A stretch of DNA of 45,514 nucleotides from Minisyncoccota bacterium (GTDB taxonomy: Bacteria; Patescibacteriota; Minisyncoccia; Phycocordibacterales; UBA9973): the NCBI GenBank assembly GCA_043746875.1, contig JAYTQE010000033.1, positions 1 through 45,514 of the forward strand, written 5' to 3'. Position numbers and translations under genes: made by a program. Of the stretch, positions 6,294 to 45,222 are shown in pieces (position 1 is the first letter of the stretch; each line of letters starts with the position of its first letter). A model generated the notes under the pieces. It saw only the letters and a list, made by a program, of their open reading frames with translations. It was not told the origin of the DNA and did no database searches.

Positions 6294-7565
6294 TTAAAGG
6301 TATAGAGTTTTTTCAATACTTTTTATATCTTTGAAAGGACCGACAATAGCCAAGTTCAGACCTTTGTTTTGAAAAATATCTTTTGCTGCATTTTGAATCT
6401 GAACAGGAGTTATAGATCTAATTTTTTTCTCAAAAAAATCTAAATCTTGTTGTTTTTTACGCAAAATTCCCTGCCCACCATAATACATTGCCCAAGCATC
6501 ACTTGATTCTAATTCCAATTTCATATTACCTATCAAATATTCTTTTGACTTTTCTAGTTCTATATGAGAGATAGCTTCATCTTTAATTTTAGAACATTCT
6601 TTTAAGATTTCTCTTATAATTTCATATATTTTATCTTTTGAAACACCTGCACTAATAGTAAAATCTCCATGATTTATAGATGAATTATTTCCAGCTCTTA
6701 CATAATAAGCAACTCCTAATTCCTCACGAAGCTTCATAAATAAACGCGATGAAAAACCTCCTGATAAAATAATACCTAATAAATCTAAAATATAGTTATC
6801 TTTATGATAAACATTATAACTTCTAAAACCTAAAACTATATGAGCTTGATCTGTATCTTTGTATTTGATAGCTAGTTTTGGTTTTTTTTGATTAATTTTT
6901 GTTTTCTTTTGAGGAATAAATTTTTGTTTTTTTAATTTACCAAAAGAATTTTTAATAAGTTCTAAAATTTCTTCTTCTTTTATTTGACCAGATACGACTA
7001 CCAGTGTTTTATTTGGAATATAGTGGTCTTTATGATATTTGACGAAATCACCTCTTTTCATATTTTTGACATTTTCCTTATTACCTAAAACACTTCTACC
7101 TGAAGGTTGATCTCCAAAAAGTAAACTGGCAAATAAATCATGAACTTGTTTTTGAGGGATATCTTCATACATATTTATCTCTTCAATAATAACTCCTTTT
7201 TCTTTTTCTATTTCATTTTTTGAAAAAGTTGGATTAAGATAAATATCAGAAACAATATCGAGTATTTTATTTAAGTGACGAGGTGAACTTTTTGCGTAAT
7301 ATCCAGTATATTCATTTGATGTAAAAGCATTATATTGACTACCTATACTATCTAGTTCTGATGATATCACCATTGTATTTGGACGTTCTACTGTTCCCTT
7401 AAAACACATATGCTCTAAAAAATGTGATAAACCTGATTGTTTTTTTGATTCATAAAAAGATCCTGTCTCAACAAGCACCAATACTGTGACAGTTAAACTG
7501 TCTTTCATTGGAATGGTTATTAATCGTAAACCATTTGAAAAGTTTTTTAAATTTGATTTGACCAT
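6294..7565 (-). CDS. M16-family (pitrilysin/insulinase-like) zinc peptidase
   Basis: Inverted zinc motif HFLEHMCFKGT (HxxEH) near the N-terminus. 423 aa. Confidence 0.85.
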   Translation of the reverse strand: MVKSNLKNFSNGLRLITIPMKDSLTVTVLVLVETGSFYESKKQSGLSHFLEHMCFKGTVERPNTMVISSELDSIGSQYNAFTSNEYTGYYAKSSPRHLNKILDIVSDIYLNPTFSKNEIEKEKGVIIEEINMYEDIPQKQVHDLFASLLFGDQPSGRSVLGNKENVKNMKRGDFVKYHKDHYIPNKTLVVVSGQIKEEEILELIKNSFGKLKKQKFIPQKKTKINQKKPKLAIKYKDTDQAHIVLGFRSYNVYHKDNYILDLLGIILSGGFSSRLFMKLREELGVAYYVRAGNNSSINHGDFTISAGVSKDKIYEIIREILKECSKIKDEAISHIELEKSKEYLIGNMKLELESSDAWAMYYGGQGILRKKQQDLDFFEKKIRSITPVQIQNAAKDIFQNKGLNLAIVGPFKDIKSIEKTLYL

Positions 7566-8956
7566 TACTTCAATCGAAGATTAATAAAATTTTCAAGCTC
7601 TGATATTGCAATACGTTCTTGAGCACCTGTATCACGATGTCTAACAGTAATAGTGTCTAATAATTCTGGATTCTCACCCAATGTGTCAAAATCTACAACT
7701 ACACACCAAGGTGTTCCTATTTCATCTTGCCTTCTATATCTCTTCCCAACATTTCCATTGTCATCAAATTCACACATAAAACTTTTACTTAAATTCAAAT
7801 AAATTTCTTTTGCTTTTGATACAAGATCTAATTTGTTTCGTAGTAGTGGGAATACGGCGACTTTTATTGGAGATAATTTTGGATCTAATTTTAAAACAAT
7901 ACGAGAACCTTCTCCAAGTTCATCTTCTGTGTAAGCATCAGAAAGAACAGCTAACATTACCCTACCTAAGCCCATTGATGTTTCAAGTACCCATGGAATG
8001 TACTTTTCATTAGTAGTTGGGTCTGTATATGAAAGATCAATACCTGAATATTTTGTATGTTGAGACAAATCATAATCTGTACGATCATGAATACCTTCTA
8101 CTTCATCAAATCCATATGTTGGAAAGTTATATTCTATATCCCAAGCATCACTTGCATAAAAAACTAAATTTTCATGTTGTTTCCATTTAAGATTTTCACT
8201 TTTAATACCTAAACTCAAATACCAGTTCCATCTTTCTTCTTTTATTTTTTCATAAGCTTGCTTGTTTTCATTTGGTCTTACAAAAAACTGTGTATCTGCT
8301 TGTTCAAATTCACGAGTTCTAAAAAGAAAATTTCTTGGAGATATTTCATTACGAAAAGCTTTACCTATTTGAGCTACGCCAAAAGGAATTTTGGCGCGCG
8401 TAGTGTCAACAATATTTTTGAAATTCAAATAAATACCCTGACATGCTTCTCCTGGTAGATATACTGGTATTTTATTTTCACCAGTAAAATCACCTAAATT
8501 TGATTTAACAAGTAAATTAAAAGCTTTGACTTCAGTAAAATCATTTGATCCACACTTAGAGCACTTTATATTTATTTTATTTTTATCAAAAAGATTATTG
8601 AGATCTTTTTCTGACATTTTTTCATCTGCAGAGATTCCTATTTTTTCAAGTTCTTTATCTACACGAAGACGAGTGTTACATTTTTTACACTCTGATAAAG
8701 GATCAGAAAAACCACCAATGTGTCCGCTTGCCTCCCATGTACGAGGATCTTTAAAGATTGCAGAATCCAAACCAAAATAATTTTCTCTTATTTGAACATT
8801 TTCTCTCCACCAAGATTTCTTTATATTATTTAGTAATTCAACACCATATGGTCCATAATCATAAATTCCAGACATCCCCCCATAAATCTCAGAACCTGGA
8901 TAAATAAAACCTCTTCTTTTACACAAACTACTTAATTTTTCCATTGAAACATCCAT
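7565..8956 (-). CDS. glyQS: Glycyl-tRNA synthetase (dimeric class II type)
   Basis: RRGFIYPGSEIYGG at the N-terminus, class II motifs (FRNEISPR, GLGRVMLA) and a C-terminal anticodon-binding domain. Confidence 0.93.
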   Translation of the reverse strand: MDVSMEKLSSLCKRRGFIYPGSEIYGGMSGIYDYGPYGVELLNNIKKSWWRENVQIRENYFGLDSAIFKDPRTWEASGHIGGFSDPLSECKKCNTRLRVDKELEKIGISADEKMSEKDLNNLFDKNKINIKCSKCGSNDFTEVKAFNLLVKSNLGDFTGENKIPVYLPGEACQGIYLNFKNIVDTTRAKIPFGVAQIGKAFRNEISPRNFLFRTREFEQADTQFFVRPNENKQAYEKIKEERWNWYLSLGIKSENLKWKQHENLVFYASDAWDIEYNFPTYGFDEVEGIHDRTDYDLSQHTKYSGIDLSYTDPTTNEKYIPWVLETSMGLGRVMLAVLSDAYTEDELGEGSRIVLKLDPKLSPIKVAVFPLLRNKLDLVSKAKEIYLNLSKSFMCEFDDNGNVGKRYRRQDEIGTPWCVVVDFDTLGENPELLDTITVRHRDTGAQERIAISELENFINLRLK

Positions 8957-8961
8957 GTTTT

Positions 8962-10848
8962 CTATGGTAACACACGTTCGCTTCCTATGGTATATATAGG
9001 GTCATTTTTAATATCATTAAAAATTGCTTCTTTTTTTGTTGATATCGAGGTGTTTGTTGTAGAATCAATAGCTGAAACATTTACTTCTCCTAATAATTTA
9101 ATACTTTCATCTATCTGACTTTTTGAAGGTCGAGTTCTAATTTGAAAAAATAATGATCTTGATCTTTGTACACTTGAAATTCTTGGTAAAGATGCAACTT
9201 TCCATTCTATGACTCTAGTAAGAGGATTAAATGAAACATCTTCATTATTTGGAATAATTACTCCAGCCCAAGCAATTGATTGTGGCAATGTTGCACTTAC
9301 AACGATTTGAGTAATTGGATTTGTTACAGGTTTTAATACCCAATTAATAGAATAAGTAGTATCTTGATCTGCTCTTGGTGGGTATGGTCCTGTATTTTTT
9401 ATTGGACCAGTAGAAAAACTAGCTTCAGAAGAGAAGTCTATTATTGATGCAAACTTAATAGTTTTTTGACTAATATTATCAATTGTTTGCTGTTCATTAT
9501 TTCTATCTGGAAAAAATCCCTTTACGGATAAAAACATAGATATATCCTTAGAAGGTCTACTTGATGGTAATACTCTGAAACTAAAAGGAAATTGACCAGT
9601 TGCTCCAGGAGCTAAACTAATTAAAGAATCATCTGTATTTGAATTCCAAATTAAAGTATTATCGATTGAATTAAAATAACCCTTATTTATAGAAATAGAA
9701 CTTTGATCTATATTTTCACCTAAAAGATTCAAAGTAAAAATTGGTTTTGATATTGTTAAAGGAGAATTGTTGGTAAAAGAAATGTAACCATCTATGCTAC
9801 TTCCTATTGGTAGAGTAACTATTTCTGAGTCTTGATTGTTTATAGATATTTTACTTGAAATAAAAGGTTCAATAATTTTTACTACAGATAAAACTGAATT
9901 ATAAATAGTGCCTATGGGGCTTCCTATTTCTCCTTCTGGGGTCCCCACATAGATACGAAAAGCTTTTTCATCATTTTCTTCTCCTAATATTCTACCTTTT
10001 ATATTTATATTTTTTTCTGTACCTTTTTGCATATCGCCTAGGCTCCAAACATTATTACCGTAAGAAGGTTTTGGTTCTGATGATTCAAAAACAAAACCAT
10101 TTGGATATTCAATTTTTGTAATAACATTATTCAAAAATTTATCTCCAGAAAAAATATTACGAACATTAAAGGTAAAACTTTGATTTGAAACTACCCCACT
10201 TGATATATCTACCGAAAGATCCACTGGTGAAGAATTTATCATTATTGATGATTTTAATTCTTTTTCAAGAACTGCTGTTGTTCCAAATAGTTGATATGAA
10301 AGTACCGCTTTGATCTCCCTACTTAATCCTTTTTCGCCATACAAAATGATATTAAAAGATTCATTTTTTGATTTTCCAGACATAATAGTCCCTATTTCTC
10401 TTTCTATTACACTTGTATCGGCACCCTTCTCATCTGTTGAGCCTTTTGGGTAGTTTAATATCAATTTAACATTTATTAAATCAACGGAATTTTTATTTAC
10501 TATTTCAACCTGAACAGGCAGCTCTTCGCCTCCGTCAACAAAAGAATTACTCAAAATATTAAATTCAACATTTTTACTAGACAAAACACTAGCTCCACGA
10601 TAAATAGAAAAACCTGCTACCCCTAAAGCTATTATGAAAAAAAATAAAGTTACTAAGAAAAACTTTTTATATCCTGAGGTGGAATTACTAATGTAATCAT
10701 TTTTAGGAAGTTTTATATCTCCCCATGTTGAAACTACATTTTGCTTCAATGGTCTTAAAATACCAAATTTACGCTTAGGAATATTTTCAGGGTCACGTGC
10801 GTATAATTTCCTTTCTAGATTTGCAATATGATCTATTTCATCAGACAT
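8962..10848 (-). CDS. Hypothetical protein, N-terminally membrane-anchored with a beta-rich extracytoplasmic region
   Basis: 628-aa ORF with one TM segment (FFLVTLFFFIIALGVAGFSIY) followed by a long Ser/Asn/Ile-rich, Ig/CARDB-like region. I recognise no catalytic motif. Confidence 0.6.
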   Translation of the reverse strand: MSDEIDHIANLERKLYARDPENIPKRKFGILRPLKQNVVSTWGDIKLPKNDYISNSTSGYKKFFLVTLFFFIIALGVAGFSIYRGASVLSSKNVEFNILSNSFVDGGEELPVQVEIVNKNSVDLINVKLILNYPKGSTDEKGADTSVIEREIGTIMSGKSKNESFNIILYGEKGLSREIKAVLSYQLFGTTAVLEKELKSSIMINSSPVDLSVDISSGVVSNQSFTFNVRNIFSGDKFLNNVITKIEYPNGFVFESSEPKPSYGNNVWSLGDMQKGTEKNINIKGRILGEENDEKAFRIYVGTPEGEIGSPIGTIYNSVLSVVKIIEPFISSKISINNQDSEIVTLPIGSSIDGYISFTNNSPLTISKPIFTLNLLGENIDQSSISINKGYFNSIDNTLIWNSNTDDSLISLAPGATGQFPFSFRVLPSSRPSKDISMFLSVKGFFPDRNNEQQTIDNISQKTIKFASIIDFSSEASFSTGPIKNTGPYPPRADQDTTYSINWVLKPVTNPITQIVVSATLPQSIAWAGVIIPNNEDVSFNPLTRVIEWKVASLPRISSVQRSRSLFFQIRTRPSKSQIDESIKLLGEVNVSAIDSTTNTSISTKKEAIFNDIKNDPIYTIGSERVLP

Positions 10849-11527: not shown

Positions 11528-14500
11528 TTAAAAAGTTACTTTAAATGAAATATTTTCTATAATAATTTCTCCAGAACTATCTTCATTTAGACTAATATTT
11601 TTGGCGCCAACAACTTTTTTAATATCGGATTCAAATGCTTTTATTATTTCCATACCATCTTTATTTGTACCGATAGAAAGATCTATTACATCATCAGGTA
11701 TAAGGCCTTTTTGTTTACGCATATCTTGAATGGCGCGCATGAGTTCGCGAGAAATACCTTCTGATTTGAGCTCTGGAGTTATTTCAATATCATATCCTAC
11801 GGTTATATTATTTTGCGTAATTAAGTCACTTTTTTCTCCTAACAAATTAAGTTCACTGACAGCTTCTTTAATGTTTAATTCTTCTTTTATTAAATCAATG
11901 TATTCTAAATCTAGTTTTAAGTCTGTACTGTTTATATTTATATAAATTTTAGACAATGGTTGTTTGAGTGAAATATTTATCTGTTTTCTAAGTGAATTAC
12001 CAGAAGTACAAACATTTCTAGTCACTTCCATTTTTTTAAGAATTTCATTGTTAACAATACTAGCTTCTGGCCATTTTGAAAGGTGAACTGATTCTACGTC
12101 ATTTTCATTTCTAAGTTTCATCCACATATCTTCTGCGGTAAATGGTGCAAATGGTGCAAGAAGTTGCGACATGGTTTTCAATACATGATAAAGGGTTTGT
12201 TTTGATTCAACATCATTATCTCTGAGCCTGTCTCGTGAGCGACGTAAATACCAAGTTGAAAGATCATCAATAAAATCACGTATAGAGCGAGTAGGTCTGA
12301 ACAAGTCGTAAGAATCTAACGATTCAGTTATTTCAATAATGATTTGATTTAATCTAGTAATAATCCATTGATCTAAAACATTTTTACTTTCTATTTTATT
12401 AATTTTATAATTTTCAATATCTTTGTCTCTATACAGCTCATAAAATGAATAAACATTACCAAATAGGTTGAAGACTTTATTATTTATTTCAGCAACAGAT
12501 TTTTCATCATAGTTCTTACTCTCGCCTGCTTGGTTGACTGAATACATCCAAAAACGTACAGCGTCTACCCCAAATTTATTAATTTGATCATATGGCTCTA
12601 CAATATTACCGATAGATTTAGACATTTTTTTACCATCTTTATCTAATAAGTGACCCAAACAAATAACATTTTTATAGGCCTTGCCTTTACCCATAATAGA
12701 CCCTATTGCATGTAATGTATAAAACCAACCACGAGTTTGATCTATTGCTTCAGATATAAAATCTGCAGGATACAAGAGTTCTTTATTTTCAAATCTTTTA
12801 CCTTTTTCAAAAGAAAATGGATAATGATCTTGAGCAAAAGGCATAGCTCCTGAATCAAACCAGACATCCATAACCTCTTTAATTCGCGTGAACAATTTAT
12901 TATCTTTTTGTAAAACAACATCATCTATATATGGTCTGTGCAAATCAAGTTCATAATTTTCATTATGAGGAAGTGGAACAAAATCAATTTTTCTTAAATC
13001 AGCATTTTCAAAGTTTATATAATCACGAGTATGATTAAATAATCCATGAAAATAAACTCCACGACTATGTAAGTCTATTGCTCTTGCAATGCCACCATGA
13101 GTTACTATTAATATCTTTTTTTCTTGATATTTTTTCTCTATGTCGTACATAAAGTCAGCAGTTCTAATTAGAACATCAATATATGATTCTCCATCTTCTG
13201 TTTTAAAATTATATCTATCAAAACCATTATTTCTTATACTGAAATAATCAATAAAAGGTTTTCCATCAAATTCTTTACCTACATACCATTCGCGTAATCT
13301 TTCGTCTTGAATTATTTCGATATTTAACCCTTTCGTTTCTGCAAAAATCCTAGAACTCTCTTTGGTTCGACTAAATGGTGATGTGATAATCAAATCAATA
13401 TCTTGATCAAAGGATTCAGCTCTATCTATAACCTGCTTTATACCAAATTCTGTCAGTGGATCAGGGGTACTACGATCACAGTTCCATTCTTGCTTTATAT
13501 TATGGTCAGTCTGACCATGACGCATTACAAAATAAGTATTACCTGATTTTTTTGTATATTTCTTAAGTGTATCAATTGAATCTACGACCAAAACTTCATT
13601 GTCATTTATCCAAATAGGTAATGGTGTTCCCCAGTATCGCTCTCGAGATATAGCCCAATCTTTAACCTCACGTAGCCATTCACCAAAACGTCCGTTTTTA
13701 ATGTGTTCCGGATTCCAATTGATATTACTATTTTCTCTAATAAGATCATCACGAAGCTCTGACATTCGAATATACCAAGAGTCACGAGCATAATATATAA
13801 GTGGAGTTTTACAACGCCAACAATGAGGATATGAATGTTCGTATTTTTCTTTTTTAAAAAGTAATCCTCTGTGTGCTAAATTTTTAATAATATCTATAGC
13901 AACTTCTTCGTCTTTTACGAATCTTCCTTCCAAAAAGTCTGTACCATTAATAAAATTTCCTGTTTCATTTACTGTGTGGAATTTAGGTAATCCAATTTTT
14001 GTACCTAGATCAAAATCTTCTTGTCCATACATAACAGCTGTATGGACTATTCCAGTACCATCAGTTGTAGTAACAAAGTCTGCAACATACACTTTGTAAG
14101 CATGCGTCATCTTGTCTTTTTCAGGTCCTGTTATTATTTCAGATAAATATGAATAAAGTGGCTCATATTCTAAGCCGACAAGTTCTAAGCCTTTCATTTC
14201 TGATATGACTTCGTAAGTATTAGTGACTATACTTAATCTTTCTTTTGCAAGAATCAAAAATTCTTCTCCTACTTTTATTTTTACATAATCAATATTTTCT
14301 CCTACTGCGAGGGCTACATTACCCGGTAGTGTCCAAGGAGTTGTAGTCCAAGCAAGTAGATAAGTATTATCCTGATCCTTTATTTTAAACTTAGCAGTCA
14401 CTGACAAATCTTTGTCGTCTTGATAACCTTGGGCTAATTCATGAGATGCAAGCGCTGTACCACAACGAGGACAATAAGGGATAACTTTGTAATCCTTATA

Positions 14501-15022
14501 TAATAAGTTCTTTTTATTAGCTTCACCTATAACATTCCAAACACTCTCCATAAACGATGGGTTAAATGTATAGTATGCAGAATCTTTATCCACCCAATAA
14601 CCAATACGCTCCGTAAAATCTTCCCAATCTTTTATGTGTGTGAAAACACTATCTTTACATTCTTTATTAAAATTAGAGATACCGTAATTTTCAATTTCTT
14701 TTTTTGATTGAAGTCCTAATTTTTTCTCTATTTGAAGTTCTACTGGCAAACCATGAGTATCCCAACCTGCACGACGTGCAACATGAAAACCTTGCATAGT
14801 TTTATAACGAGGCATTACATCTTTAAAAGCACGAGCTTCAAGATGATGAAGTGCTGGTTTAGCATTAGCAGTCGGTGGCCCTTCGTAGAATATAAAATCT
14901 CCTTTTGGGGATTCTTTTTCAAGAGACTTTTTGAAGATATTATTTTCTTGCCAAAACTTCAAAACTATTTCTTCACGAAATGCCGCTGTTGATTTATTTA
15001 AATTTTTATTTTCCTCTATCAT
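11528..15022 (-). CDS. ileS: Isoleucyl-tRNA synthetase (type 2-like) with an internal histidine-phosphatase domain insertion
   Basis: HHLEARA (HIGH-like), an editing domain (TTTPWTLPGN), WAISRERYWGTPLPIW, DVWFDSG and KMSKS. Residues ~495-681 carry RHGQTDHN...SPFSRT...EWYVG...THGG. Confidence 0.95.
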   Translation of the reverse strand: MIEENKNLNKSTAAFREEIVLKFWQENNIFKKSLEKESPKGDFIFYEGPPTANAKPALHHLEARAFKDVMPRYKTMQGFHVARRAGWDTHGLPVELQIEKKLGLQSKKEIENYGISNFNKECKDSVFTHIKDWEDFTERIGYWVDKDSAYYTFNPSFMESVWNVIGEANKKNLLYKDYKVIPYCPRCGTALASHELAQGYQDDKDLSVTAKFKIKDQDNTYLLAWTTTPWTLPGNVALAVGENIDYVKIKVGEEFLILAKERLSIVTNTYEVISEMKGLELVGLEYEPLYSYLSEIITGPEKDKMTHAYKVYVADFVTTTDGTGIVHTAVMYGQEDFDLGTKIGLPKFHTVNETGNFINGTDFLEGRFVKDEEVAIDIIKNLAHRGLLFKKEKYEHSYPHCWRCKTPLIYYARDSWYIRMSELRDDLIRENSNINWNPEHIKNGRFGEWLREVKDWAISRERYWGTPLPIWINDNEVLVVDSIDTLKKYTKKSGNTYFVMRHGQTDHNIKQEWNCDRSTPDPLTEFGIKQVIDRAESFDQDIDLIITSPFSRTKESSRIFAETKGLNIEIIQDERLREWYVGKEFDGKPFIDYFSIRNNGFDRYNFKTEDGESYIDVLIRTADFMYDIEKKYQEKKILIVTHGGIARAIDLHSRGVYFHGLFNHTRDYINFENADLRKIDFVPLPHNENYELDLHRPYIDDVVLQKDNKLFTRIKEVMDVWFDSGAMPFAQDHYPFSFEKGKRFENKELLYPADFISEAIDQTRGWFYTLHAIGSIMGKGKAYKNVICLGHLLDKDGKKMSKSIGNIVEPYDQINKFGVDAVRFWMYSVNQAGESKNYDEKSVAEINNKVFNLFGNVYSFYELYRDKDIENYKINKIESKNVLDQWIITRLNQIIIEITESLDSYDLFRPTRSIRDFIDDLSTWYLRRSRDRLRDNDVESKQTLYHVLKTMSQLLAPFAPFTAEDMWMKLRNENDVESVHLSKWPEASIVNNEILKKMEVTRNVCTSGNSLRKQINISLKQPLSKIYININSTDLKLDLEYIDLIKEELNIKEAVSELNLLGEKSDLITQNNITVGYDIEITPELKSEGISRELMRAIQDMRKQKGLIPDDVIDLSIGTNKDGMEIIKAFESDIKKVVGAKNISLNEDSSGEIIIENISFKVTF

Positions 15023-20968: not shown

Positions 20969-22651
20969 TTACATCTTCTCTGGAGTGGAAATACCTATGA
21001 TTTTAAGACCATTATTAATAGTTTGTTTTACAGATTCAACTATAGCTAGTCTATAGGTTGTTGCCTCTTCATTTTCATCTATAATTTTTCCCTGGCCGTA
21101 CCAAGTATTGAAGTACTGTGCTAAATCTACAAGATAAACCAAAACATGATGTGGTGCCCATTCATTTATCGAGCGAGAAACAACCTCTGGAAATCGTACG
21201 ATAATTTTCTCCAATGTTTCTGTTCCAGTGGTTGGATTTGATAAATCAGGATTTATATTTTCATTTAAACCTTTTGTAAGTAATGATCCTGCTCTAACTG
21301 TAACGTACTGCAAGTATGGACCACTATCTCCTTCAAACGATAAAGATGTTTCTGGGTCAAAGTTTATATCTTTGCCAGCCATAGCACGAAGCACACTGAA
21401 CTTAATTGCTGATATTGCAATATTTTCAACTTCCAAAATTCCAAGATTAGAATTCTTTTCTTTGATATCACCTACGACAGTATCGAGCACATCTTCAGCA
21501 AGAGGTACACCTCCGAGACGTGATGACATTTTCTGACCCTTAAATGACATACGTCCATGAGTTCGATGAATACTTCTCTCTTGCCAATCTTTGTTTATAT
21601 AACTGACAGCATCTAGAACTATTTGAAAATGAGGGATCTGGTGATTGTCTGTTATAAATATTGATTTGTCAGGATTATAGCGTTCAAACTTCATAGACAT
21701 AAGTCCAACATCTTTGGCTTCATAAGTTGGATTACCTTGGCTATTGATAAATACCGCTGTATTTATATCCTTGCGAGATTCCTCTGGTATGTAAACTATT
21801 GCACCCTCACTTTCGGTGAAAACTTTTGAGGTAAACTTTTTCACTATTTCCTTACCAATTTCCCCTGCTTCGCTTTCGTATATATAAGAATCAAAATGTG
21901 AACCAAGTCTTGTTGTGATATTTTCAAAATATTCCATATTCAAATCTTTGCATTTTTTGAAAATTTTAAATTCTGAAGAATTAATACCAGCATAAAGATT
22001 ATCAGCAATTTCTTTGACTCTTGCATGTATGGATTCGTCTTCTTCGTATCTTTTAGTACCCTCAACATAAGATTCTCCCAATATGGATACATCTGTCGGT
22101 TCAAAATCTTCACCATATTTATCAAGTACTACAAATATAGCTTTGGCGGTACCGAGAGATATGTCTGATGGAAATGACATAGTAGTAACTTCAGCACCTG
22201 AAGCACGCGCAAGACCAACAATTGCCTCTCCAATAGTATTGTTCATCAAGTGACCTATATGAAATGGCTTAAAAAGATTTGGGCTTGAATGTTCTACTAA
22301 TATCTTCTGACCTTTCAAATCATTTACATGCCCCCACTTATCACCTAACTTTTTTGCATCTTTCAATTGCTCAATAAAAATACTTCTATCGAGTGTGAAG
22401 TTTATAAATCCAGGACCTGCTATTTTAATTTCATTTATTCCTGAAATATTTTTATGTTTCAATATTTTTACAAATTGGCCTGCTAAGACTATTGGATTTT
22501 GACCTAATTTTTTACCAACAATAAGTGCTATATTTGTCGCATAGTCTCCATGACCGAGATCTTTTGGATGCTCAAGTGTGAAATCAACCTCAGGTAATTC
22601 TAACTCTGCTATAACTTTTTTGATCGCTCCTCCTATTAGGATTTCATACAT
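20969..22651 (-). CDS. argS: Arginyl-tRNA synthetase
   Basis: HSSPNLFKPFHIGH (HIGH), N-terminal Arg_tRNA_synt_N-like domain, DALR-type C-terminus ending in M. Confidence 0.93.
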   Translation of the reverse strand: MYEILIGGAIKKVIAELELPEVDFTLEHPKDLGHGDYATNIALIVGKKLGQNPIVLAGQFVKILKHKNISGINEIKIAGPGFINFTLDRSIFIEQLKDAKKLGDKWGHVNDLKGQKILVEHSSPNLFKPFHIGHLMNNTIGEAIVGLARASGAEVTTMSFPSDISLGTAKAIFVVLDKYGEDFEPTDVSILGESYVEGTKRYEEDESIHARVKEIADNLYAGINSSEFKIFKKCKDLNMEYFENITTRLGSHFDSYIYESEAGEIGKEIVKKFTSKVFTESEGAIVYIPEESRKDINTAVFINSQGNPTYEAKDVGLMSMKFERYNPDKSIFITDNHQIPHFQIVLDAVSYINKDWQERSIHRTHGRMSFKGQKMSSRLGGVPLAEDVLDTVVGDIKEKNSNLGILEVENIAISAIKFSVLRAMAGKDINFDPETSLSFEGDSGPYLQYVTVRAGSLLTKGLNENINPDLSNPTTGTETLEKIIVRFPEVVSRSINEWAPHHVLVYLVDLAQYFNTWYGQGKIIDENEEATTYRLAIVESVKQTINNGLKIIGISTPEKM

Positions 22652-37784: not shown

Positions 37785-37889
37785 TTTTGTATTATTTAAT
37801 TTTTATAGATCAATATTGTTTATTTGTTTAAATTCATCCTAACATCAGCTGCTGATATAGCAAGCCTTGTAAGAATATTTTTATTATTG

Positions 37890-37962
37890 GGGGCCTATCG
37901 GGAATCGAACCCGAATCGAAGGTTCCACAAACCTCAGTGTTAACCGTTACACCATAAGCCCC
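37890..37962 (-). tRNA. tRNA-His (anticodon GUG) with an encoded G-1; CCA not encoded
   Basis: Cloverleaf folded by hand. G-1 plus acceptor GGGCUUA/UAGGCCC, anticodon loop UUGUGGA, T-arm UCGGG-UUCGAUU-CCCGA, C73. Confidence 0.9.
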
Positions 37963-38013
37963 ATGAAATTAAATTTTATTAGTAGAGTTTTTGTTATACC
38001 AGAAATAGAGTAT

Positions 38014-39000
38014 TTAATCTAGAGCTGATACTTCTTTATTCTTTGAAAGATGATTTTCAAAAATACGAGAACCTATAACTACACAAGAAAGTAGTACCCC
38101 ATAAAGCACAACAGCTGTGATGAAGTCTGTACTTATAGACCTCAAAGAACCTAAAATAAAAGCTAAGTACCATGATGTTATAGATATACCACCCAATGCA
38201 AAAGCTATTCTTCTAAAACGTCTTGATATTTTATCTTCAGCAAAACTAAGCCTTCTTATATGAGGGGCCACGAACATATTTAATATTAGTCCGTTTAAAA
38301 TAATCACACTAACAACAACAACTTTTAATAAAAACTTTGAGGACACAGCTAGTTTACTAGCCTCTGGAATAAACAATGCAATTCCACTCACTATAAGTAT
38401 TGCTAAACCTACCCATATAACACTAGAGAGTGTGTCCATTGTGTCTTTTTCTTCTTGAGATATTTTTCCATCTTTTAGAAATCTAAAAAATAATATATCT
38501 GTAATTGTTGCCGCTCCTATTCCCAATATAAAACCTATACTATGTACAATAACCCACATTACCTTTTGTGATGCTAAAATAAAATCAAATTGCGCTATCG
38601 GTATAGAAGATAAACTGATAAATAAAATCAAATTAGAAAGAGCTATCCCTGCACACCAAAAACACCATGATCTAATTATTAAAATCTGTGCCATGACAAG
38701 ATATATTGAAAACAAAAGTCCGATAATCAACATAAAAAACAAAATATACAAAAGCCAAGATGTTACCATACCAGAACAAGGTATCATCAAAATAGTTCCT
38801 ACACTTAAGAAATAAAATATTCCTAAAATTTCATTAGGTATGCCAAATGTTTTTGAAAATCTACTATGTAAAACACTGTCACAAGGATGTTCTCTTGGGC
38901 AGATCAATTTATCATGTCTTATTTTTTTTAAAAAAATATAAAGAGAGCACGCTATACCAAGCAAACAAGCTCCGAAAGCAATTATAATATTAATTGTCAT
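38014..39000 (-). CDS. VKOR-family thiol oxidoreductase fused to a C-terminal polytopic membrane domain
   Basis: Loop cysteines CPREHPC and the active-site CFWC in a TM helix. An additional ~170 aa with ~5 TM segments follows. Confidence 0.7.
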   Translation of the reverse strand: MTINIIIAFGACLLGIACSLYIFLKKIRHDKLICPREHPCDSVLHSRFSKTFGIPNEILGIFYFLSVGTILMIPCSGMVTSWLLYILFFMLIIGLLFSIYLVMAQILIIRSWCFWCAGIALSNLILFISLSSIPIAQFDFILASQKVMWVIVHSIGFILGIGAATITDILFFRFLKDGKISQEEKDTMDTLSSVIWVGLAILIVSGIALFIPEASKLAVSSKFLLKVVVVSVIILNGLILNMFVAPHIRRLSFAEDKISRRFRRIAFALGGISITSWYLAFILGSLRSISTDFITAVVLYGVLLSCVVIGSRIFENHLSKNKEVSALD

Positions 39001-39023
39001 TACTTTATTCTAAATGAAAATAC

Positions 39024-39053
39024 AAAAAAAGCCCAGAGATAAAATCTCTAAGC
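39024..39053 (-). terminator. Intrinsic terminator downstream of tRNA-Leu
   Basis: Minus-strand RNA GCUUAGAGAU-UUU-AUCUCUGGGC followed by UUUUUUU. Confidence 0.65.
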
Positions 39054-39064
39054 ATTTTTTTTAG

Positions 39065-39146
39065 TGCACGAGAGAGGAATTGAACCTCCACGCCTTGCGG
39101 CACACGAACCTCAATCGTGCGCGTATACCAGTTCCGCCACTCGTGC
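39065..39146 (-). tRNA. tRNA-Leu (anticodon GAG), class II with a long variable arm
   Basis: Acceptor GCACGAG/CUCGUGC, anticodon stem CACGA/UCGUG with loop UUGAGGU, variable arm UGCCGCAAGGCGUG, A73. Confidence 0.9.
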
Positions 39147-39168
39147 AAGAAATATATTATAAACTATT

Positions 39169-39582
39169 TTATTCAGTTCCAGATTCTTCTGAAACTTCTT
39201 CGTTTTCAATTTCTTGAGCTTCAATTTTTCCACCAAGAATTTGTTTCATTTTGCGACGAATTTCTTTTGTTGCCTTATCACGAATATAATAAAGTTTACT
39301 TCTTCTTGTTTTTGTCTTTTTTGTAATTTCGATACGATCAATCATTGGAGAGTAAAGTGGGAAAATACGTTCAACCCCTACAGAATTAGAAATTTTGCGT
39401 ACTGTAAAAGTAGCAGATGGCCCTGTTCCATGTTTACGAGCTAAAACTATTCCTTCAAAAGCTTGAAGTCTAAATTTACCCTTATCTTGTATTTTTGACC
39501 AAACACGAACTGAGTCGCCTGAGCTAAAAGCTAAAGATTTTCTTGACTCAATATCAACTGGAGTAAAATTCTTTGTTTCCAT
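39169..39582 (-). CDS. rplS: 50S ribosomal protein L19
   Basis: FSSGDSVRVWSKIQDKGKFRLQAFEGIVLARKHG...VERIFPLYSP. Start set at METKNF (39582) to avoid overlapping the upstream gene. Confidence 0.92.
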   Translation of the reverse strand: METKNFTPVDIESRKSLAFSSGDSVRVWSKIQDKGKFRLQAFEGIVLARKHGTGPSATFTVRKISNSVGVERIFPLYSPMIDRIEITKKTKTRRSKLYYIRDKATKEIRRKMKQILGGKIEAQEIENEEVSEESGTE

Positions 39583-39598
39583 ATAGGTCAAAATACTA

Positions 39599-40327
39599 TC
39601 ACGAAATACTATACTTAGCAACAGCATTTTTAAAATCTTCTGGATATGGGGCTACTACCTCTATTTCGTCACCATTTAAGTCCTTAAAAGTGATTTTGTA
39701 AGCATGTAGTGCCAACCTCTCAAAATTTAGTGCTTGTCTTTTTGATGAAGAATAAAGACTGTCTGAAACTATAGGTCTCTGCATATATTTCATATGGACT
39801 CTTAATTGGTGAGTTCTACCTGTCTTAGGGAATAATTTAATAAAAGAAAAATTATCTTTATTTTCGTCTTCAAATTGATTTATTACTTGCCATTTTGTAA
39901 ATGCTTCTCTTGTTTCTCCTCTTACGCCTCGCCCAGCAAGCCATTTCCGAAAATCTCCAGAACTTCGACCAATAGGTATATCTACTACACCAAATGATTC
40001 TTTGAAATGACCCCAAACAAATGCATGATATTCTTTTTCAATTTCTTTATTCATAAAAAGATTTTTGAAATAAGAAAAAGAATTTGATGTTTTTGCAATA
40101 ATGAGTACGCCTGATGTATCTTCGTCTAGTCTATGCACTATACCTGGACGATCAATTTCTTTATTCCCAAATATTGCTTTTTCTCCAACATCTATTATTT
40201 CTGGATATTTTTCAATGATCCAATCTGTTAGTGTTGGATCATTACGCTTACCATCGCTATGAACCATCAAACCTGCAGGTTTGTTTATTACCAAAAAATC
40301 TTTTGTTTCCATTAGAATATTTATCAT
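39599..40327 (-). CDS. RluA-family pseudouridine synthase
   Basis: HRLDEDTSGVLIIAK catalytic motif and TGRTHQLRVH. This is the only CDS in the window ending in TGA. Confidence 0.9.
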   Translation of the reverse strand: MINILMETKDFLVINKPAGLMVHSDGKRNDPTLTDWIIEKYPEIIDVGEKAIFGNKEIDRPGIVHRLDEDTSGVLIIAKTSNSFSYFKNLFMNKEIEKEYHAFVWGHFKESFGVVDIPIGRSSGDFRKWLAGRGVRGETREAFTKWQVINQFEDENKDNFSFIKLFPKTGRTHQLRVHMKYMQRPIVSDSLYSSSKRQALNFERLALHAYKITFKDLNGDEIEVVAPYPEDFKNAVAKYSIS

Positions 40328-40344
40328 ATCTACCAGTTTACACT

Positions 40345-40377
40345 GAAAAATAAAAAACCGTGATTAATCACGGTTTT
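40345..40377 (-). terminator. Intrinsic terminator overlapping the stop of the ClpP-like gene
   Basis: aaaccgtgat/atcacggttt 10-bp perfect stem. The minus-strand RNA is followed by UUUUUUAUUUUU. Confidence 0.75.
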
Positions 40378-40834
40378 AGAAAAAAGGTACTTTTTTTGTG
40401 GCAATCCCTAAATCAAGAAGATCAGTAGAAGACAACATAACATTATTAAGTCTTTCAATATTGGAAATATCCATTTTTGTCTGTTTCTCAAAAATTGAAA
40501 TAAAATGTTTTGTTTGCTGAATCTTTGTTGATTTATCTTTTGACTCAGGTAGATGTATAGCACCGAAACTTTTATCACAAACAATTCTTTCGTGCATATT
40601 AACAGCAAAGAGCATAGCTGATGATTCTGCATATTCAATTTCAGCTATAAAGTGATATTTGTACTGTGTAAAGTAGTATACAAATCCATTCATTATTGCC
40701 ATACTTTCAACATCTCCTCCATGGGAATTAATTCTAATTCTAATTTCTCGTTGAGTAGGTAGTACTCTTCTTAATGAAATCTTAAACTGCTTAACCATAT
40801 TCTTGTTGAATTCACCATCAATAGGAATAATCAT
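40376..40834 (-). CDS. Short ClpP/S14-like (ClpP-crotonase fold) protein
   Basis: By eye it aligns with the ClpP core. INSHGGDV matches INSPGG, AESSAM covers the catalytic Ser region, and AIHLPE matches MIHQP. The N-terminal region is missing and the Asp position appears to be Asn. Confidence 0.55.
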   Translation of the reverse strand: MIIPIDGEFNKNMVKQFKISLRRVLPTQREIRIRINSHGGDVESMAIMNGFVYYFTQYKYHFIAEIEYAESSAMLFAVNMHERIVCDKSFGAIHLPESKDKSTKIQQTKHFISIFEKQTKMDISNIERLNNVMLSSTDLLDLGIATKKVPFF

Positions 40835-40835
40835 T

Positions 40836-40863
40836 TTGACAAAGGTTTTATTTCGTGTATAAT
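40836..40863 (+). promoter_or_regulatory. Near-consensus sigma70 promoter
   Basis: TTGACA (40836..40841), a 16-nt spacer, then TATAAT (40858..40863). Confidence 0.55.
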
Positions 40864-40894
40864 GGTAACATTAATATAATAATATGTCAAATAT

Positions 40895-41065
40895 ATGGAA
40901 CAACCAGAAACAGGCCCAACAAGACCAATAATGCCATTAGAAGCAACTGATGCTAAAGGGAATATGAGAAAAGCATACACTATGGTCGAAGGAGATGTTT
41001 ATTACGGAAGTGAAGAAGAACTTACAGAGGAAATTGTAAGACGTAGAGAGGAAGCTAAAAATTAA
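40895..41065 (+). CDS. Hypothetical small protein (56 aa), not in the ORF track
   Basis: An ATG..TAA ORF (MEQPETGPTRPIMPLEATDAKGNMRKAYTMVEGDVYYGSEEELTEEIVRRREEAKN) framed by a consensus promoter and a strong terminator. It is GC-richer than its flanks. Confidence 0.35.
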   Translation: MEQPETGPTRPIMPLEATDAKGNMRKAYTMVEGDVYYGSEEELTEEIVRRREEAKN

Positions 41066-41097
41066 TAAAAAAAACTCCCATTAGGGAGTTTTTTTTA
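41066..41097. terminator. Bidirectional intrinsic terminator
   Basis: aactccc-atta-gggagtt hairpin flanked by an A-run and a T-run. It separates convergent ORFs. Confidence 0.8.
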
Positions 41098-41349
41098 TTA
41101 AGCTACTTTTTTTAATTCATCCTTTTTTATAGTAATAATTTCACCAGAAAGTTTTTCAAACTTATCAAGGAAAATTTGGTATTCTGATTCTCTAAGTTCA
41201 AATCCCATGGCAAAATACTTACCTTCACGCTCTCCAGTATTCCCTCCTTCTCCAAACATAGGTGCTTCTTCTTTCATTTTAGATATAGCAATCTGAAGAT
41301 TAACCTCGCTCCAGTGCTTTTGCTCTATTCCTTTTTCTCCAAAAATCAT
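41098..41349 (-). CDS. Hypothetical protein (83 aa)
   Basis: An ORF with no motif I recognise. A TATAAT lies 6 nt upstream of its ATG, so it may be leaderless. Confidence 0.4.
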   Translation of the reverse strand: MIFGEKGIEQKHWSEVNLQIAISKMKEEAPMFGEGGNTGEREGKYFAMGFELRESEYQIFLDKFEKLSGEIITIKKDELKKVA

Positions 41350-41479
41350 ATTTAGATTATATCATTAACTTATAATAATAGTTTACTCTATACTTATTTT
41401 ATAGAGGTCACAACGACTAAATCGTGGATTATAAAATAGCAAATTTATCTATATTTAAAAACAACTTCATTATTCTTAG

Positions 41480-41551
41480 TGCTCCCGGTAGGAATCGAAC
41501 CTACAATAACGGCTTAGAAGTCCGCAGTTATATCCATTTAACTACGGGAGC
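41480..41551 (-). tRNA. tRNA-Arg (anticodon UCU)
   Basis: Acceptor GCUCCCG/CGGGAGC, D-arm GUUA/UAAC, anticodon loop CUUCUAA, T-arm GUAGG-UUCGAUU-CCUAC, A73. There is an A31.G39 mismatch. Confidence 0.88.
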
Positions 41552-41669
41552 ATTGGTACCTACATACTATATGAACAAATAAAATTTGCAAAACTATCAT
41601 TTTTTAAGTATGCTATTTCTAGCGTTTTATACGCTCTTAGTTGTTTTGGTAGGCTCAGAATATTTATGA

Positions 41670-41745
41670 GCGCTCTTAGCTCAGTTGGTAGAGCAGTGCT
41701 TTTACACAGCAAAGGTCGGGGGTTCGAATCCCTCAGGGCGCACCA
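41670..41745 (+). tRNA. tRNA-Val (anticodon UAC) with encoded CCA
   Basis: Acceptor GCGCUCU/AGGGCGC, D-arm GCUC-AGUUGGUA-GAGC, anticodon loop UUUACAC, T-loop UUCGAAU, 3' ACCA. Confidence 0.92.
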
Positions 41746-41756
41746 AGCAAATCATT

Positions 41757-42044
41757 TTAATTTGGGGTTATTTGATCAATAACTCTTTCGTTTATCGTCT
41801 TATCTATTTTATCTAGTGTTCTACTCATAAGCTCTATTTTGTCTTTATTGGTTTCAAGCTTAACAATAGCTGGAGCATCTAATTTTTGAGAAATAAAAAG
41901 GAAATACCAGCTAAAAATAAATAGCTCAAGTGTTAATAAAATAATAAATAATATTAATATATGATTCCAAAAAGTATGGGGATTAAATACTTTTCTTTTT
42001 AAGAAATTATTTTTATATATTTTTTTAGAAAAAACTGGTTCCAT
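41757..42044 (-). CDS. Hypothetical single-TM protein at the distal end of the pilMNO cluster
   Basis: 95 aa with one TM (ILILFIILLTLELFIFSWYFLFI). Its start is contiguous with the pilO-like stop. Confidence 0.5.
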   Translation of the reverse strand: MEPVFSKKIYKNNFLKRKVFNPHTFWNHILILFIILLTLELFIFSWYFLFISQKLDAPAIVKLETNKDKIELMSRTLDKIDKTINERVIDQITPN

Positions 42045-42045
42045 A

Positions 42046-42618
42046 TTAATAACTTATTATTTGAATACTTGCTGTTAATTCAGTTGGATTTTCTTGGTTT
42101 GTAACAACTTCAAATTTTTTTTCATTTCCAACTACTTTTTCTAGGGAAATATTATGTTTAAGTAAAAATTGTACAAAATTAATTTGATATGTTTGATGTT
42201 CTAATAAAAACAAAAACTTGGCAATATCCTCTTCTTTCCCTTTTGCCATAAAACCTATACTAAACTTTGATTCTGGGTAATTAATATCAGGAGCAACAAC
42301 AGATGAAATAGAAAAATCTAGGTTGTTATTTTTAGCCAAAGATTCAAAACTAGATAATAAATTAGGAACAGTTGCTTGTGTTATTATGTATTTTTCTAAA
42401 CTATCTGTTTTATTTTTTATATTATCCAAATCTTTTGACTCTTCAGAAAAAATCTTTTTATTTTCTTCAAAAGAAACAAGTCTTTCTTTTGAAGAATTAA
42501 CCTGGTTGAACATTTGATTAAACTTTTTAAATAAAAATACAAAACCAATAACTACAGCAAAAAAGCATGTGAGTGCAATTATAAATATAATAATATGTTT
42601 TTTTAAAATTTGTTTCAT
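42046..42618 (-). CDS. pilO: PilO-like type IV pilus assembly protein
   Basis: An N-terminal TM, a coiled coil and a small C-terminal domain. Positioned after pilM and pilN. Confidence 0.55.
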   Translation of the reverse strand: MKQILKKHIIIFIIALTCFFAVVIGFVFLFKKFNQMFNQVNSSKERLVSFEENKKIFSEESKDLDNIKNKTDSLEKYIITQATVPNLLSSFESLAKNNNLDFSISSVVAPDINYPESKFSIGFMAKGKEEDIAKFLFLLEHQTYQINFVQFLLKHNISLEKVVGNEKKFEVVTNQENPTELTASIQIISY

Positions 42619-42625
42619 ATTTTTA

Positions 42626-43150
42626 TTATTTTAATTTTATTAAGAGATAAAAACTTCCATTTTCATTTTTAACAAAATTAGAAAGCGGTGAGTCCACAGA
42701 CTCAATTAAATTACTACTCCTAAGAAATTCTAAAAAATCTTGAAGTTGAACTCTAGATATATAAATACCCTCTACTTTTAGAGTTAGATTTTTATTATCC
42801 ATATCAAAACTAGTAATAATTACACCTTTTGGGGTTAATGTTTTTATATAATTTATATAAAAACTTGGTGATAAAATAGTTTCCATATTTAGTTTCTGGT
42901 CAAGATTTGTTATACGATTATTAAGGTTTTCAATATCAGAAGCATCTATAATACTCCCTCCTTCTTTTAATTTTTTTATTTGATTATCTACTATAGAGTA
43001 TCTTGAATTTACAGTGAAAATAGTTGGTAATAATAAAAATAAAGCAATTATCATAAGTATTGTCATCCCCCAAAAAACAACAGTTAGTATACGTAATTTA
43101 CGTATACTTTTTATTATTTTTTTTTCTTCATATGGTAATAAATTAATCAT
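42626..43150 (-). CDS. pilN: PilN-like type IV pilus assembly protein
   Basis: MINLLPYEEKK (the INLLP motif that binds PilM) followed by one TM. Start set at Met8 of the tracked ORF; it overlaps the pilM end by 8 nt. Confidence 0.75.
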   Translation of the reverse strand: MINLLPYEEKKIIKSIRKLRILTVVFWGMTILMIIALFLLLPTIFTVNSRYSIVDNQIKKLKEGGSIIDASDIENLNNRITNLDQKLNMETILSPSFYINYIKTLTPKGVIITSFDMDNKNLTLKVEGIYISRVQLQDFLEFLRSSNLIESVDSPLSNFVKNENGSFYLLIKLK

Positions 43151-44219: not shown

Positions 44220-44245
44220 ATATCTATTATACGATATGATTCAAT

Positions 44246-44599
44246 CTATCGCACGACAGATCCACTGTTTACATCTTTTTCTGGAATAAGAAATATTGGA
44301 GAACCATCAATACCATCAACAGCCATGAGCATTCCTTGGCTTTGGTATCCTTTTATTGTTCTTGGTTCTAGATTTACTATATAAAGAACTTGTTTATTAA
44401 TAAGCTTTTTATAGTCTGGATAAAATTCATGAATACCTGAGATAATTTGTCTTAATTTTTTATTACCAAGATCGTCAACTTCGTTGAAGTCAACCTGACA
44501 GATAAGCAATTTGTCAGTATCGGGAACTGGAGAAACTTCTCGAATAGTCCCAACTCTAATATCCATTTTTTTGAAATCCTCATAATTAATATATGTCAT
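44246..44599 (-). CDS. Stand-alone tRNA-binding OB-fold protein (Trbp111/CsaA-like)
   Basis: DFKKMDIRVGTIREV...LLICQVDF...PRTIKGYQSQGMLMA matches the tRNA_bind domain that is otherwise fused to MetRS or PheT. Confidence 0.85.
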   Translation of the reverse strand: MTYINYEDFKKMDIRVGTIREVSPVPDTDKLLICQVDFNEVDDLGNKKLRQIISGIHEFYPDYKKLINKQVLYIVNLEPRTIKGYQSQGMLMAVDGIDGSPIFLIPEKDVNSGSVVR

Positions 44600-44614
44600 A
44601 AATTAAAGTGTAGT

Positions 44615-44995: not shown

Positions 44996-45067
44996 ATATT
45001 GCAGATTAACATGAACATGTTGAAAATACACTTTTGCTATGGTAGAGTTCATAAACTTCGACACAAA

Positions 45068-45154
45068 GGAAGCGTGGCAGAGTGGTCGAATGCACCTGTC
45101 TTGAAAACAGGAGTCCTCGTAAGGGGACCGTGAGTTCGAATCTCACCGCTTCCG
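45068..45154 (+). tRNA. tRNA-Ser (anticodon UGA), class II
   Basis: Acceptor GGAAGCG/CGCUUCC, anticodon stem CCUGU/ACAGG with loop CUUGAAA, an 18-nt variable arm, T-arm GUGAG-UUCGAAU-CUCAC, G73. Confidence 0.9.
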
Positions 45155-45222
45155 CAAAAACATTTTAGTATAAGAACATGACAGTGGTCCGACTCGTGTA
45201 TATAAAATTACAATAAAAAAAA

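Follow-up and report, generated by a model that had tools for sequence, protein, structure and literature searches.

What is a complete histidine phosphatase domain doing inside an isoleucyl-tRNA synthetase (IleRS)? The question is raised by the ileS gene on contig JAYTQE010000033.1 (assembly GCA_043746875.1) of a Minisyncoccota bacterium, a member of the Patescibacteriota; the whole stretch analysed, 45,514 nucleotides long, is called the window. Few known enzymes are as conserved as the aminoacyl-tRNA synthetases. A first-pass annotation, made from the letters of the window alone, had proposed that ileS is one uninterrupted gene of 1164 codons whose product departs from the synthetase sequence for about 190 residues, displays the four signature motifs of the histidine phosphatase superfamily and then returns to it. 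We find this architecture to be real, locate the insert in the zinc finger of connective peptide 3 (CP3) and follow it through a large group of Patescibacteria. As for its function, we tentatively prefer an independent small-molecule phosphatase over a domain that takes part in aminoacylation.

The synthetase itself was characterized from its open reading frame (ORF), which encodes 1164 amino acids in one reading frame and, as first proposed, without interruption. The whole protein matches the ileS model TIGR00392 (E 6e-262, 871.7 bits) and passes the equivalog cutoff of 621.4 bits despite the 190-residue interruption; its Pfam domains are tRNA-synt_1, His_Phos_1, Anticodon_1 and DUF5915. The closest structures of the body in the PDB are the type-2 IleRS (IleRS2) of Priestia megaterium (8C8W, E 1.7e-238) and the Thermus thermophilus enzyme (1ILE, E 1e-222), and the full-length AlphaFold2 (AF2) model aligns with P. 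megaterium 8C8U/8C8V at template modelling (TM) scores of 0.66-0.79. Across an alignment of 66 sequences, the residues P56-A57-L58-H59-H60, the editing motifs WTTTPWTLPGN (225-235) and GTGxVH (H327)...D336, the zinc-finger cysteines C184/C187/C401/C404 of connective peptide 1 (CP1), WFDSG (W721-G725) and the KMSKS region (K798-S803) are invariant. The class I signatures, the CP1 editing motifs, Anticodon_1, DUF5915 and the full-length fold match to 8C8V all place the protein among the type-2 IleRSs. Judged by these features, the gene product is a putative housekeeping IleRS that has every part it needs to activate and transfer the amino acid, to edit and to recognize the anticodon. Its ALHH signature belongs to the A/GXHH class known in IleRS2, for which Brkic et al. 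(10.1101/2023.01.31.526100) showed mupirocin hyper-resistance by experiment. The signature suggests that IleRSs of the candidate phyla radiation (CPR) that carry ALHH would be insensitive to mupirocin.

The inserted domain is identified by PF00300 (His_Phos_1), which covers residues 498-657 of the whole protein (E 2.7e-26, 92.9 bits against a gathering cutoff of 21.7); when residues 492-682 were searched alone, the match improved to E 7.1e-28 and the score rose to 98 bits. The interval and the positions first reported were exact (12977-13549 for residues 492-682, 13517-13522 for R501-H502 and 13091-13102 for T641-H642-G643-G644), and the four motifs do occur in order, namely RHG (501-503), SPFSR (548-552), E578 and THG (641-643). 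The residues R501, H502, N508, R552, E578, H642 and G643 are invariant in 121 close sequences (60-69% identity). When the comparison is widened to 25 IleRS inserts at 28-53% identity, the sole invariant columns are R501, H502, S548, R552, E578, E612 and H642. R501 and H502 are found in 25 of these 25 divergent inserts and in 79 of 80 embedded representatives; indeed, each catalytic residue is present in 78-80 of the 80 embedded copies (representatives at 50% identity), second and third copies included. The insert as a whole changes faster than the catalytic core and is constrained much as the peripheral domains of IleRS are (its conservation is 0.64, while the anticodon-binding domain reaches 0.71 and the C-terminal domain 0.47). 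To judge from these alignments, the catalytic residues are kept by purifying selection and are not decaying, in line with the initial view of a putatively functional, rather than decayed, active site.

The fold leads to the same family. The insert was modelled with a predicted local distance difference test (pLDDT) of 90-96 inside the full-length AF2 model, whose mean is 80.6, and of 91.2, with a predicted TM score of 0.89, when modelled alone. Its nearest sequences in the PDB are PhoE (1EBB/1H2E, E 1e-9) and then PspA, GpgP and CobC. A Foldseek search with the insert model returned PhoE at TM 0.81, and the PhoE/CobC/GpgP/PspA structures at a probability of 1.00 and TM 0.72-0.81; other neighbours were the riboflavin-pathway HFP, Rv3214 and TIGAR, and the top 50 consisted throughout of capped metabolite phosphatases or mutases of ~200-250 residues. 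By its score, its catalytic core and its alpha/beta/alpha fold with a cap, the insert is a branch 1 member of PF00300. It shares with PhoE (YhfR) of Geobacillus stearothermophilus, and with the PhoE/CobC/GpmB/PspA/GpgP group as a whole, the catalytic RHG...R...E...H, a length of ~190 residues and the cap. Unlike these free-standing enzymes, to which it is ~20-25% identical, it has both termini anchored in another enzyme.

More precise identities were tried and rejected. CobC (TIGR03162) is the best NCBIfam match, but at 79.8 bits against a cutoff of 162.9; the dPGM model NF038349 gave 49.8 against 225, other dPGM models (TIGR01258 etc.) scored lower, and the nearest structures are phosphatases of ~200 residues, not mutases of 250; SixA (TIGR00249) gave 18.3 against 74.5 bits (E 1.6e-3). 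Since no curated equivalog cutoff is reached, a substrate cannot be transferred from any member of the PhoE/CobC/GpmB/PspA/GpgP group. The SixA match bears on one possible role, that of a protein or phospho-histidine phosphatase which would undo an inhibitory phosphorylation of IleRS (for example by HipA-like toxin kinases) or serve in signalling. The superfamily does include SixA, Sts and PGAM5, and the weak sixA hit is consistent with this role; however, that hit is marginal, neither SixA, Sts, PGAM5 nor any other protein phosphatase occurs among the top 50 structural neighbours, a cap over the active site is usual in enzymes of metabolites and the neighbourhood of ileS holds no kinase. We therefore regard this role as very unlikely.

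Where exactly does the domain sit? In a residue-level alignment, Thermus 1ILE 428-461 corresponds to residues 440-473 of our protein and 1ILE 488-527 to residues 692-730, so that the intervening length at CP3 is 218 residues compared with 26 in Thermus and 22-26 in solved IleRS2 structures. The alignment with 1ILE and 8C8V stops at residue 473, precisely where those proteins carry C461 and C459, and the positions of the finger cysteines of Thermus and Priestia hold other residues here. In the AF2 model both hairpins of the finger (470-479 and 704-713) are retained and the phosphatase leaves from the loop between them; the linker in the C-terminal half of the finger is strongly conserved (majority fraction 0.86) and confidently modelled. 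CP3 appears as a Cys-rich zinc finger of 25-77 residues in the module list of Douglas et al. (PMC10810186), who also point out that a second zinc finger, ZF, has the editing domain of IleRS and valyl-tRNA synthetase (ValRS) nested within it. The first-pass annotation had placed the domain in the catalytic Rossmann fold; the host element is this zinc-finger module of the catalytic core, which precedes the second Rossmann half, and not the Rossmann fold proper.

The missing cysteines had been noted at the outset by comparison with Thermus, and the alignment agrees. However, many divergent insert-bearing IleRSs retain the CP3 cysteines around the insert (CxxC...CxC/CxxC); the loss is therefore specific to the query clade, and the insert lies within the finger loop instead of replacing the finger. 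For this reason, the phosphatase was ruled out as a substitute for the zinc finger. Zinc-site erosion also differs between the two fingers and among lineages, since the representatives P0206, P0129 and P0135 have lost the first Cys pair of the CP1 finger (YSPKLGS for CPRCGT) while the query clade has lost the CP3 cysteines. A domain of no catalytic relevance, serving as a structural brace in place of CP3 zinc binding or simply as a neutral passenger, would fit the loss of finger cysteines in the query clade and an insert that evolves faster than the catalytic core. The retention of the zinc ligands in many insert-bearing relatives, the coincidence of the invariant columns at 28-53% identity with the catalytic residues (together with S548 and E612), and the upkeep of these residues in nearly all copies, second and third included, speak so clearly against it that we consider it hardly credible.

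We then asked whether the architecture could be an artefact, and how far it extends. All of the 120 closest homologues, drawn from NCBI, JGI, ENA and Logan assemblies, share the Pfam architecture (60-69% identity, 1072-1189 residues), and those with a taxon name are Paceibacteria, Nomurabacteria or Patescibacteria. When one genome of each species was scanned with patterns specific to the insert, 288 stretches encoding a relative came to light. The best 80 of these, which were examined, come from Patescibacteria, mostly Paceibacteria but also Nomurabacteria, Zambryskibacteria, Taylorbacteria and Kaiserbacteria; the insert and its IleRS flanks share one frame at all 80 loci, and 62 are complete with both flanks. 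The GC content (0.28-0.35) runs smoothly over both junctions, which fall exactly at the CP3 finger loop. An assembly chimera, or a frameshift joining two genes, can therefore be dismissed for practical purposes; it was excluded through comparison with homologues, not through read mapping. Members have long been public, such as GW2011 Nomurabacteria LBOM01000005.1 and the Brennerbacteria UniRef entry A0A1G1XM41, under the automatic annotations 'isoleucyl-tRNA synthetase' or 'class I tRNA ligase family protein'. Based on this survey, the insert-bearing form is the standard IleRS of a large, class-level group of Patescibacteria and is not rare. The survey thereby supplies the comparison of CPR orthologues that had been called for at the outset. 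One contig in the scan, JBEBJM010000005.1, is labelled 'Nitrospira sp.' but encodes an IleRS of the Paceibacteria type that contains the insert, at 53% insert identity; it is probably a binning contaminant in that metagenome-assembled genome.

Searching the insert against 1.84 billion cluster representatives gave 5728 matches, 487 of them below 1e-10. Among the best 150 are 73 IleRSs or fragments, 68 standalone proteins (~170-230 residues, 35-48% identity), three ValRSs, one TsaC and five others. Insert-bearing IleRS2s occur with both signatures, A/GXHH and the canonical HxGH. Besides the finger loop, His_Phos domains occupy three further sites in IleRS, four in total: one within hairpin 2 of the finger (P0128, P0144), one in the loop that follows WFDSG, at about residues 732-750 of the query (P0128, P0129, P0135, P0225), and one before the anticodon-binding domain, at about 868-880 (P0129, P0135, P0192, P0270). 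Several IleRSs carry two copies, the range across relatives being 2-4, and in the IleRS variants just named the catalytic residues are intact in every copy. Individual IleRS matches show other departures: P0233 (1066 residues) has, next to His_Phos, an extra, unassigned segment of ~225 residues that lies between positions 249 and 290 of the query, within the region of the editing domain, and P0184 reads HVGN for HxGH, so that the last His of the signature is gone.

The domain also reaches beyond IleRS. P0172 is a true ValRS (1018 bits against 704) with His_Phos at the position equivalent to CP3, and P0130 is a ValRS with four His_Phos stretches. Among the 120 closest ValRS relatives, about 60 have a PF00300 domain, the named ones being Falkowbacteria, Komeilibacteria and Peregrinibacteria, whereas close relatives from Magasanikbacteria and Buchananbacteria do not. 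P0171 is among the CPR ValRSs with His_Phos at the CP3-equivalent position, and the ValRS matches include multi-copy giants of 1750 (P0466) and 1414 residues (P0449). In two further ValRSs, P0437 (1080 residues) and P0514 (1054 residues), an alpha/beta-hydrolase (PF00561, PF06821) is found in place of His_Phos, so that other hydrolases, too, may be hosted by the connective-peptide region of class Ia synthetases in the CPR. The copies borne by ValRS and TsaC have IleRS-borne copies as their nearest relatives. Fusion with TsaC was seen in only four clusters. The threonylcarbamoyl-AMP synthase TsaC/Sua5 of Patescibacteria (P0193, P0271-P0273 and other matches) is a fusion hub in its own right, most commonly joined to an Ogt DNA methyltransferase domain and otherwise to TruB, a LigT-like 2'-5' ligase/phosphoesterase, NUDIX, GNAT or a purine DNA glycosylase. 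With so few clusters and so many unrelated partners, function by association through the TsaC-His_Phos fusion was down-weighted.

The relation between insert and host was examined through their divergence. Within the query clade, insert and body diverge together. Among distant representatives the correlation of insert and body distances is 0.09, a value reached by 459 of 2000 permutations, the insert identities being saturated (26-44%); the class structure of A/GXHH against HxGH is visible in the bodies but not in the inserts. With distances so saturated, the data may reflect one ancient insertion or several insertions or exchanges, both being compatible with the alignments.

There are two ways in which the phosphatase could take part in the work of the synthetase. 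One is coupling to adenylate chemistry: the domain would remove AMP (to adenosine and inorganic phosphate), possibly pyrophosphate, or a 3'/5'-phosphorylated nucleotide, and would thereby relieve product inhibition or feed nucleoside salvage. IleRS, ValRS and TsaC/Sua5 all make an acyl-adenylate and pyrophosphate from ATP and later release AMP, and the ValRS- and TsaC-borne copies are the closest to those of IleRS. Moreover, CobC, the best NCBIfam match and one of the top structural neighbours, acts on the nucleotide-like alpha-ribazole-5'-phosphate, and the CP3 and post-WFDSG sites both lie in the catalytic body. On the other hand, the match to CobC falls far short of the cutoff (79.8 vs 162.9), the TsaC fusion is rare with partners that are many and unrelated, close ValRS relatives lack the domain, and the insertion site at 868-880 is at the junction with the anticodon-binding domain, a place away from the ATP site in class I synthetases. 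Destroying AMP is also costly in energy, and we know of no branch 1 His_Phos enzyme that hydrolyses pyrophosphate. On balance such coupling seems unlikely.

The other way is repair of tRNA ends, in which a 3'(2')-phosphate or pyrophosphate would be removed from damaged or toxin-modified acceptor ends before charging, by a third catalytic site beside synthesis and editing. This would account for the domain having so strongly, and more than once, favoured the two class Ia synthetases that edit, where it occurs at several positions and in more than one copy, for nesting in the CP3 finger in parallel to the editing hydrolase nested in ZF, and for the rigid, conserved connection to the body. However, the insert is acidic (isoelectric point 5.3, net charge -6) and no more basic than its standalone relatives, every structural neighbour is an enzyme of metabolites whose pocket is covered by a cap, and the cap residues R597, R603 and K607, conserved in the close clade, are not conserved across the wider IleRS-embedded family. 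In addition, the differing insertion sites cannot all bring the pocket near A76, and a limitation to tRNA-Ile or tRNA-Val would be odd. We consider tRNA-end repair improbable. Charge, tried as an indicator of RNA binding, gave no sign of it: embedded domains are acidic and do not differ from standalone ones. Of the roles offered in the first-pass annotation, action on tRNA ends and regulatory phospho-transfer are thus disfavoured by the acidic insert and by its small-molecule phosphatase neighbours.

Instead, our preference, a tentative one, goes to a housekeeping IleRS that would host an active, independent small-molecule phosphomonoesterase. In this model, a self-contained PhoE/CobC-type phosphatase is nested in the distal loop of CP3, after which no further connective peptide precedes the second Rossmann half. 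H502 would attack the terminal phosphoryl group to form a phospho-histidine intermediate, with the phosphate held by R501, R552 and H642 and the leaving group protonated by E578. The substrate would be a small phosphomonoester metabolite (nucleotide-like or a sugar or acid phosphate), not tRNA or protein; the fold neighbours that act on metabolites, the acidity of the insert and the variability of the cap residues in the wider family all favour this. The two activities would stand side by side on one polypeptide with no fixed channel between their sites, and a fixed geometry is disfavoured because relatives carry His_Phos at four IleRS sites and in 2-4 copies. We infer this activity, substrate class and lack of coupling, while the architecture, conservation, intact catalytic set, fold and recurrence are shown by the analyses.

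As to its origin, a streamlined genome may have captured a needed phosphatase in the permissive, outward-facing CP3 loop and then locked it to an essential, constitutively expressed gene. Capture in a permissive site, rather than an obligate partnership, is suggested by standalone relatives being about as numerous as embedded ones (68 vs 73 of the best 150), by the existence of ValRSs with and without the domain, by the two with an alpha/beta-hydrolase and by the promiscuous fusions of TsaC. It also fits that the window has no second His_Phos gene and that none lies closer than 6 kb to ileS at 80 loci.

Two sets of observations weigh against an independent enzyme. Fused hosts are mostly IleRS or ValRS (76 of the 82 non-standalone representatives) and insertion has recurred at several sites in both paralogues, a pattern more host-specific than random capture and a hint of a functional link to aminoacylation. 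Furthermore, the conserved linkers, modelled as rigid, suggest an integrated module and not a loosely tethered one. It is possible, if doubtful, that His_Phos constitutes a third catalytic site of CPR class Ia synthetases, tied to aminoacylation. Such a site could, for example, take phosphate off tRNA acceptor ends that are damaged or modified by toxins, or dispose of a phosphorylated nucleotide blocking the synthetic site, and the tie would explain the repeated recruitment into IleRS and ValRS, at several sites and in multiple copies.

Comparison with known systems sets the arrangement apart. The protein resembles the type-2 IleRSs of P. megaterium (8C8U/8C8V) and Thermus (1ILE) in full-length homology, fold, domain order and C-terminal domains, and departs from them in the length of the CP3 finger, the loss of its cysteines and the presence of a second enzyme fold. 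A parallel within class Ia is the CP1 editing domain of IleRS, ValRS and leucyl-tRNA synthetase, also a hydrolase in the loop of a Cys-rich finger of a connective peptide (PMC10810186). Unlike it, our insert is in CP3 and not in ZF, has an unrelated fold, would catalyse phosphoryl transfer instead of ester hydrolysis, and is found in CPR lineages only, whereas the editing domain is universal. A curated precedent for an IleRS with an additional enzyme domain exists in NF040702 (ileS_w_GNAT). There, however, the extra domain is a GNAT, which, from profile-coordinate offsets, appears to lie in the CP1/editing region and not in CP3; our protein scores 314.7 against a cutoff of 1999 and has no GNAT match in Pfam. 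Similarly, the RNase H/acid phosphatase of the Rv2228c type (NF005567) fuses a CobC-like His_Phos to a nucleic-acid enzyme, and its phosphatase half matches our insert (E 8.8e-17), but that fusion is end-to-end, not nested, and involves another partner enzyme, and the score stays far under the cutoff (61.5 against 326). Full-text literature searches found no description of an IleRS with His_Phos, and a targeted reading of IleRS-evolution papers and synthetase module catalogues turned up no synthetase with a phosphatase module. Although each of the two families is familiar by itself, it appears that neither their combination nor its place of nesting and its recurrence has been described.

The features of the gene are collected in Table 1. 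Around ileS the window holds ordinary housekeeping genes, encoding an M16 peptidase, a class II aminoacyl-tRNA synthetase, RecO, a P-type ATPase, a LOG/SLOG protein, a beta-CASP RNase, NDK and ArgRS, and no kinase or repair gene that would give a functional clue was found among these flanks. Translation genes are dense in the window (7565-8956 (-), 20969-22651 (-) and 37889-45155), with a class II synthetase bearing an HGTP anticodon domain and ArgRS; no extra domains were seen in the other synthetases of the window. Five tRNA genes (His, Leu, Arg, Val and Ser), NDK, the LOG/SLOG protein and the beta-CASP protein, which is RNase J-like, are also present. Two genes downstream of ileS, past the RecO-like gene, an ORF of 628 residues (8962-10848 (-)) has no Pfam match at E 1e-4; with one N-terminal hydrophobic segment and a long remainder rich in Ser, Asn, Thr and Ile, it may encode a surface protein.

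Table 1. Features of the ileS gene and its nested phosphatase, with residue roles as predicted; counts refer, in this order, to 121 close sequences, 25 divergent IleRS inserts and 80 embedded representatives.
Feature	Residues	Position in window	Strand	Basis
ileS, type-2 IleRS with nested phosphatase		11528..15022	-	ORF list, TIGR00392, PDB and AF2 matches
IleRS N-terminal part: first Rossmann half, ZF/CP1 editing domain, CP2; ends at WAISRERYWGTPLPIW motif	1-473	13604..15022	-	Pfam tRNA-synt_1 over 20-491
Class I signature ALHH, non-canonical, where HxGH is expected	57-60	14843..14854	-	invariant (n = 66)
CP3 finger, N-terminal half: hairpin 470-479 without CxxC, helix 483-489 into insert	474-491	13550..13603	-	DSSP of AF2 model
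His_Phos_1 domain, branch 1, PhoE/CobC-like	492-682	12977..13549	-	PF00300, PDB, AF2, Foldseek
RHG: R501, nucleophile H502, G503	501-503	13514..13522	-	R501/H502 121/121, G503 120/121
R552 (SPFSR), second phosphate-binding Arg	552	13367..13369	-	121/121, 25/25, 80/80
E578, general acid/base Glu	578	13289..13291	-	121/121, 25/25, 79/80 plus one Asp
H642-G643 (THG), second catalytic His	642-643	13094..13099	-	121/121; H 25/25 and 78/80
CP3 finger, C-terminal half: PLPHN..DLHRPYID, hairpin 704-713 without CxC	683-716	12875..12976	-	aligned to 1ILE 488-513, site of C502/C504
Second Rossmann half, WFDSG (721-725, nt 12848-12862) to KMSKS (799-803, nt 12614-12628)	721-803	12614..12862	-	1ILE/8C8V alignment
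Anticodon-binding helical domain	884-1026	within 11555..12373	-	Anticodon_1, E 5.9e-34
Type-2 C-terminal tRNA-binding domains	1012-1156	within 11555..12373	-	DUF5915, E 5.1e-16

To our knowledge, the catalytic bodies of bacterial aminoacyl-tRNA synthetases are thought to have ceased gaining modules long ago, and apart from the editing domain, which is universal, we know of no hydrolase nested in the class Ia core. In the present case the other core zinc finger houses a further hydrolase, unrelated to the first and with its active site intact, and this arrangement is the norm for a class-level group of Patescibacteria. If it is coupled to aminoacylation, it would represent a new auxiliary activity of a synthetase, such as the clean-up of tRNA ends or of nucleotides. 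If, instead, it is an independent metabolic enzyme, it would provide a clean natural case of domain-in-domain capture driven by genome streamlining, and the CP3 finger would be a permissive site open to engineering. On either reading, the insert offers a testable way into the biology of bacteria for which growth in isolation is not yet possible.

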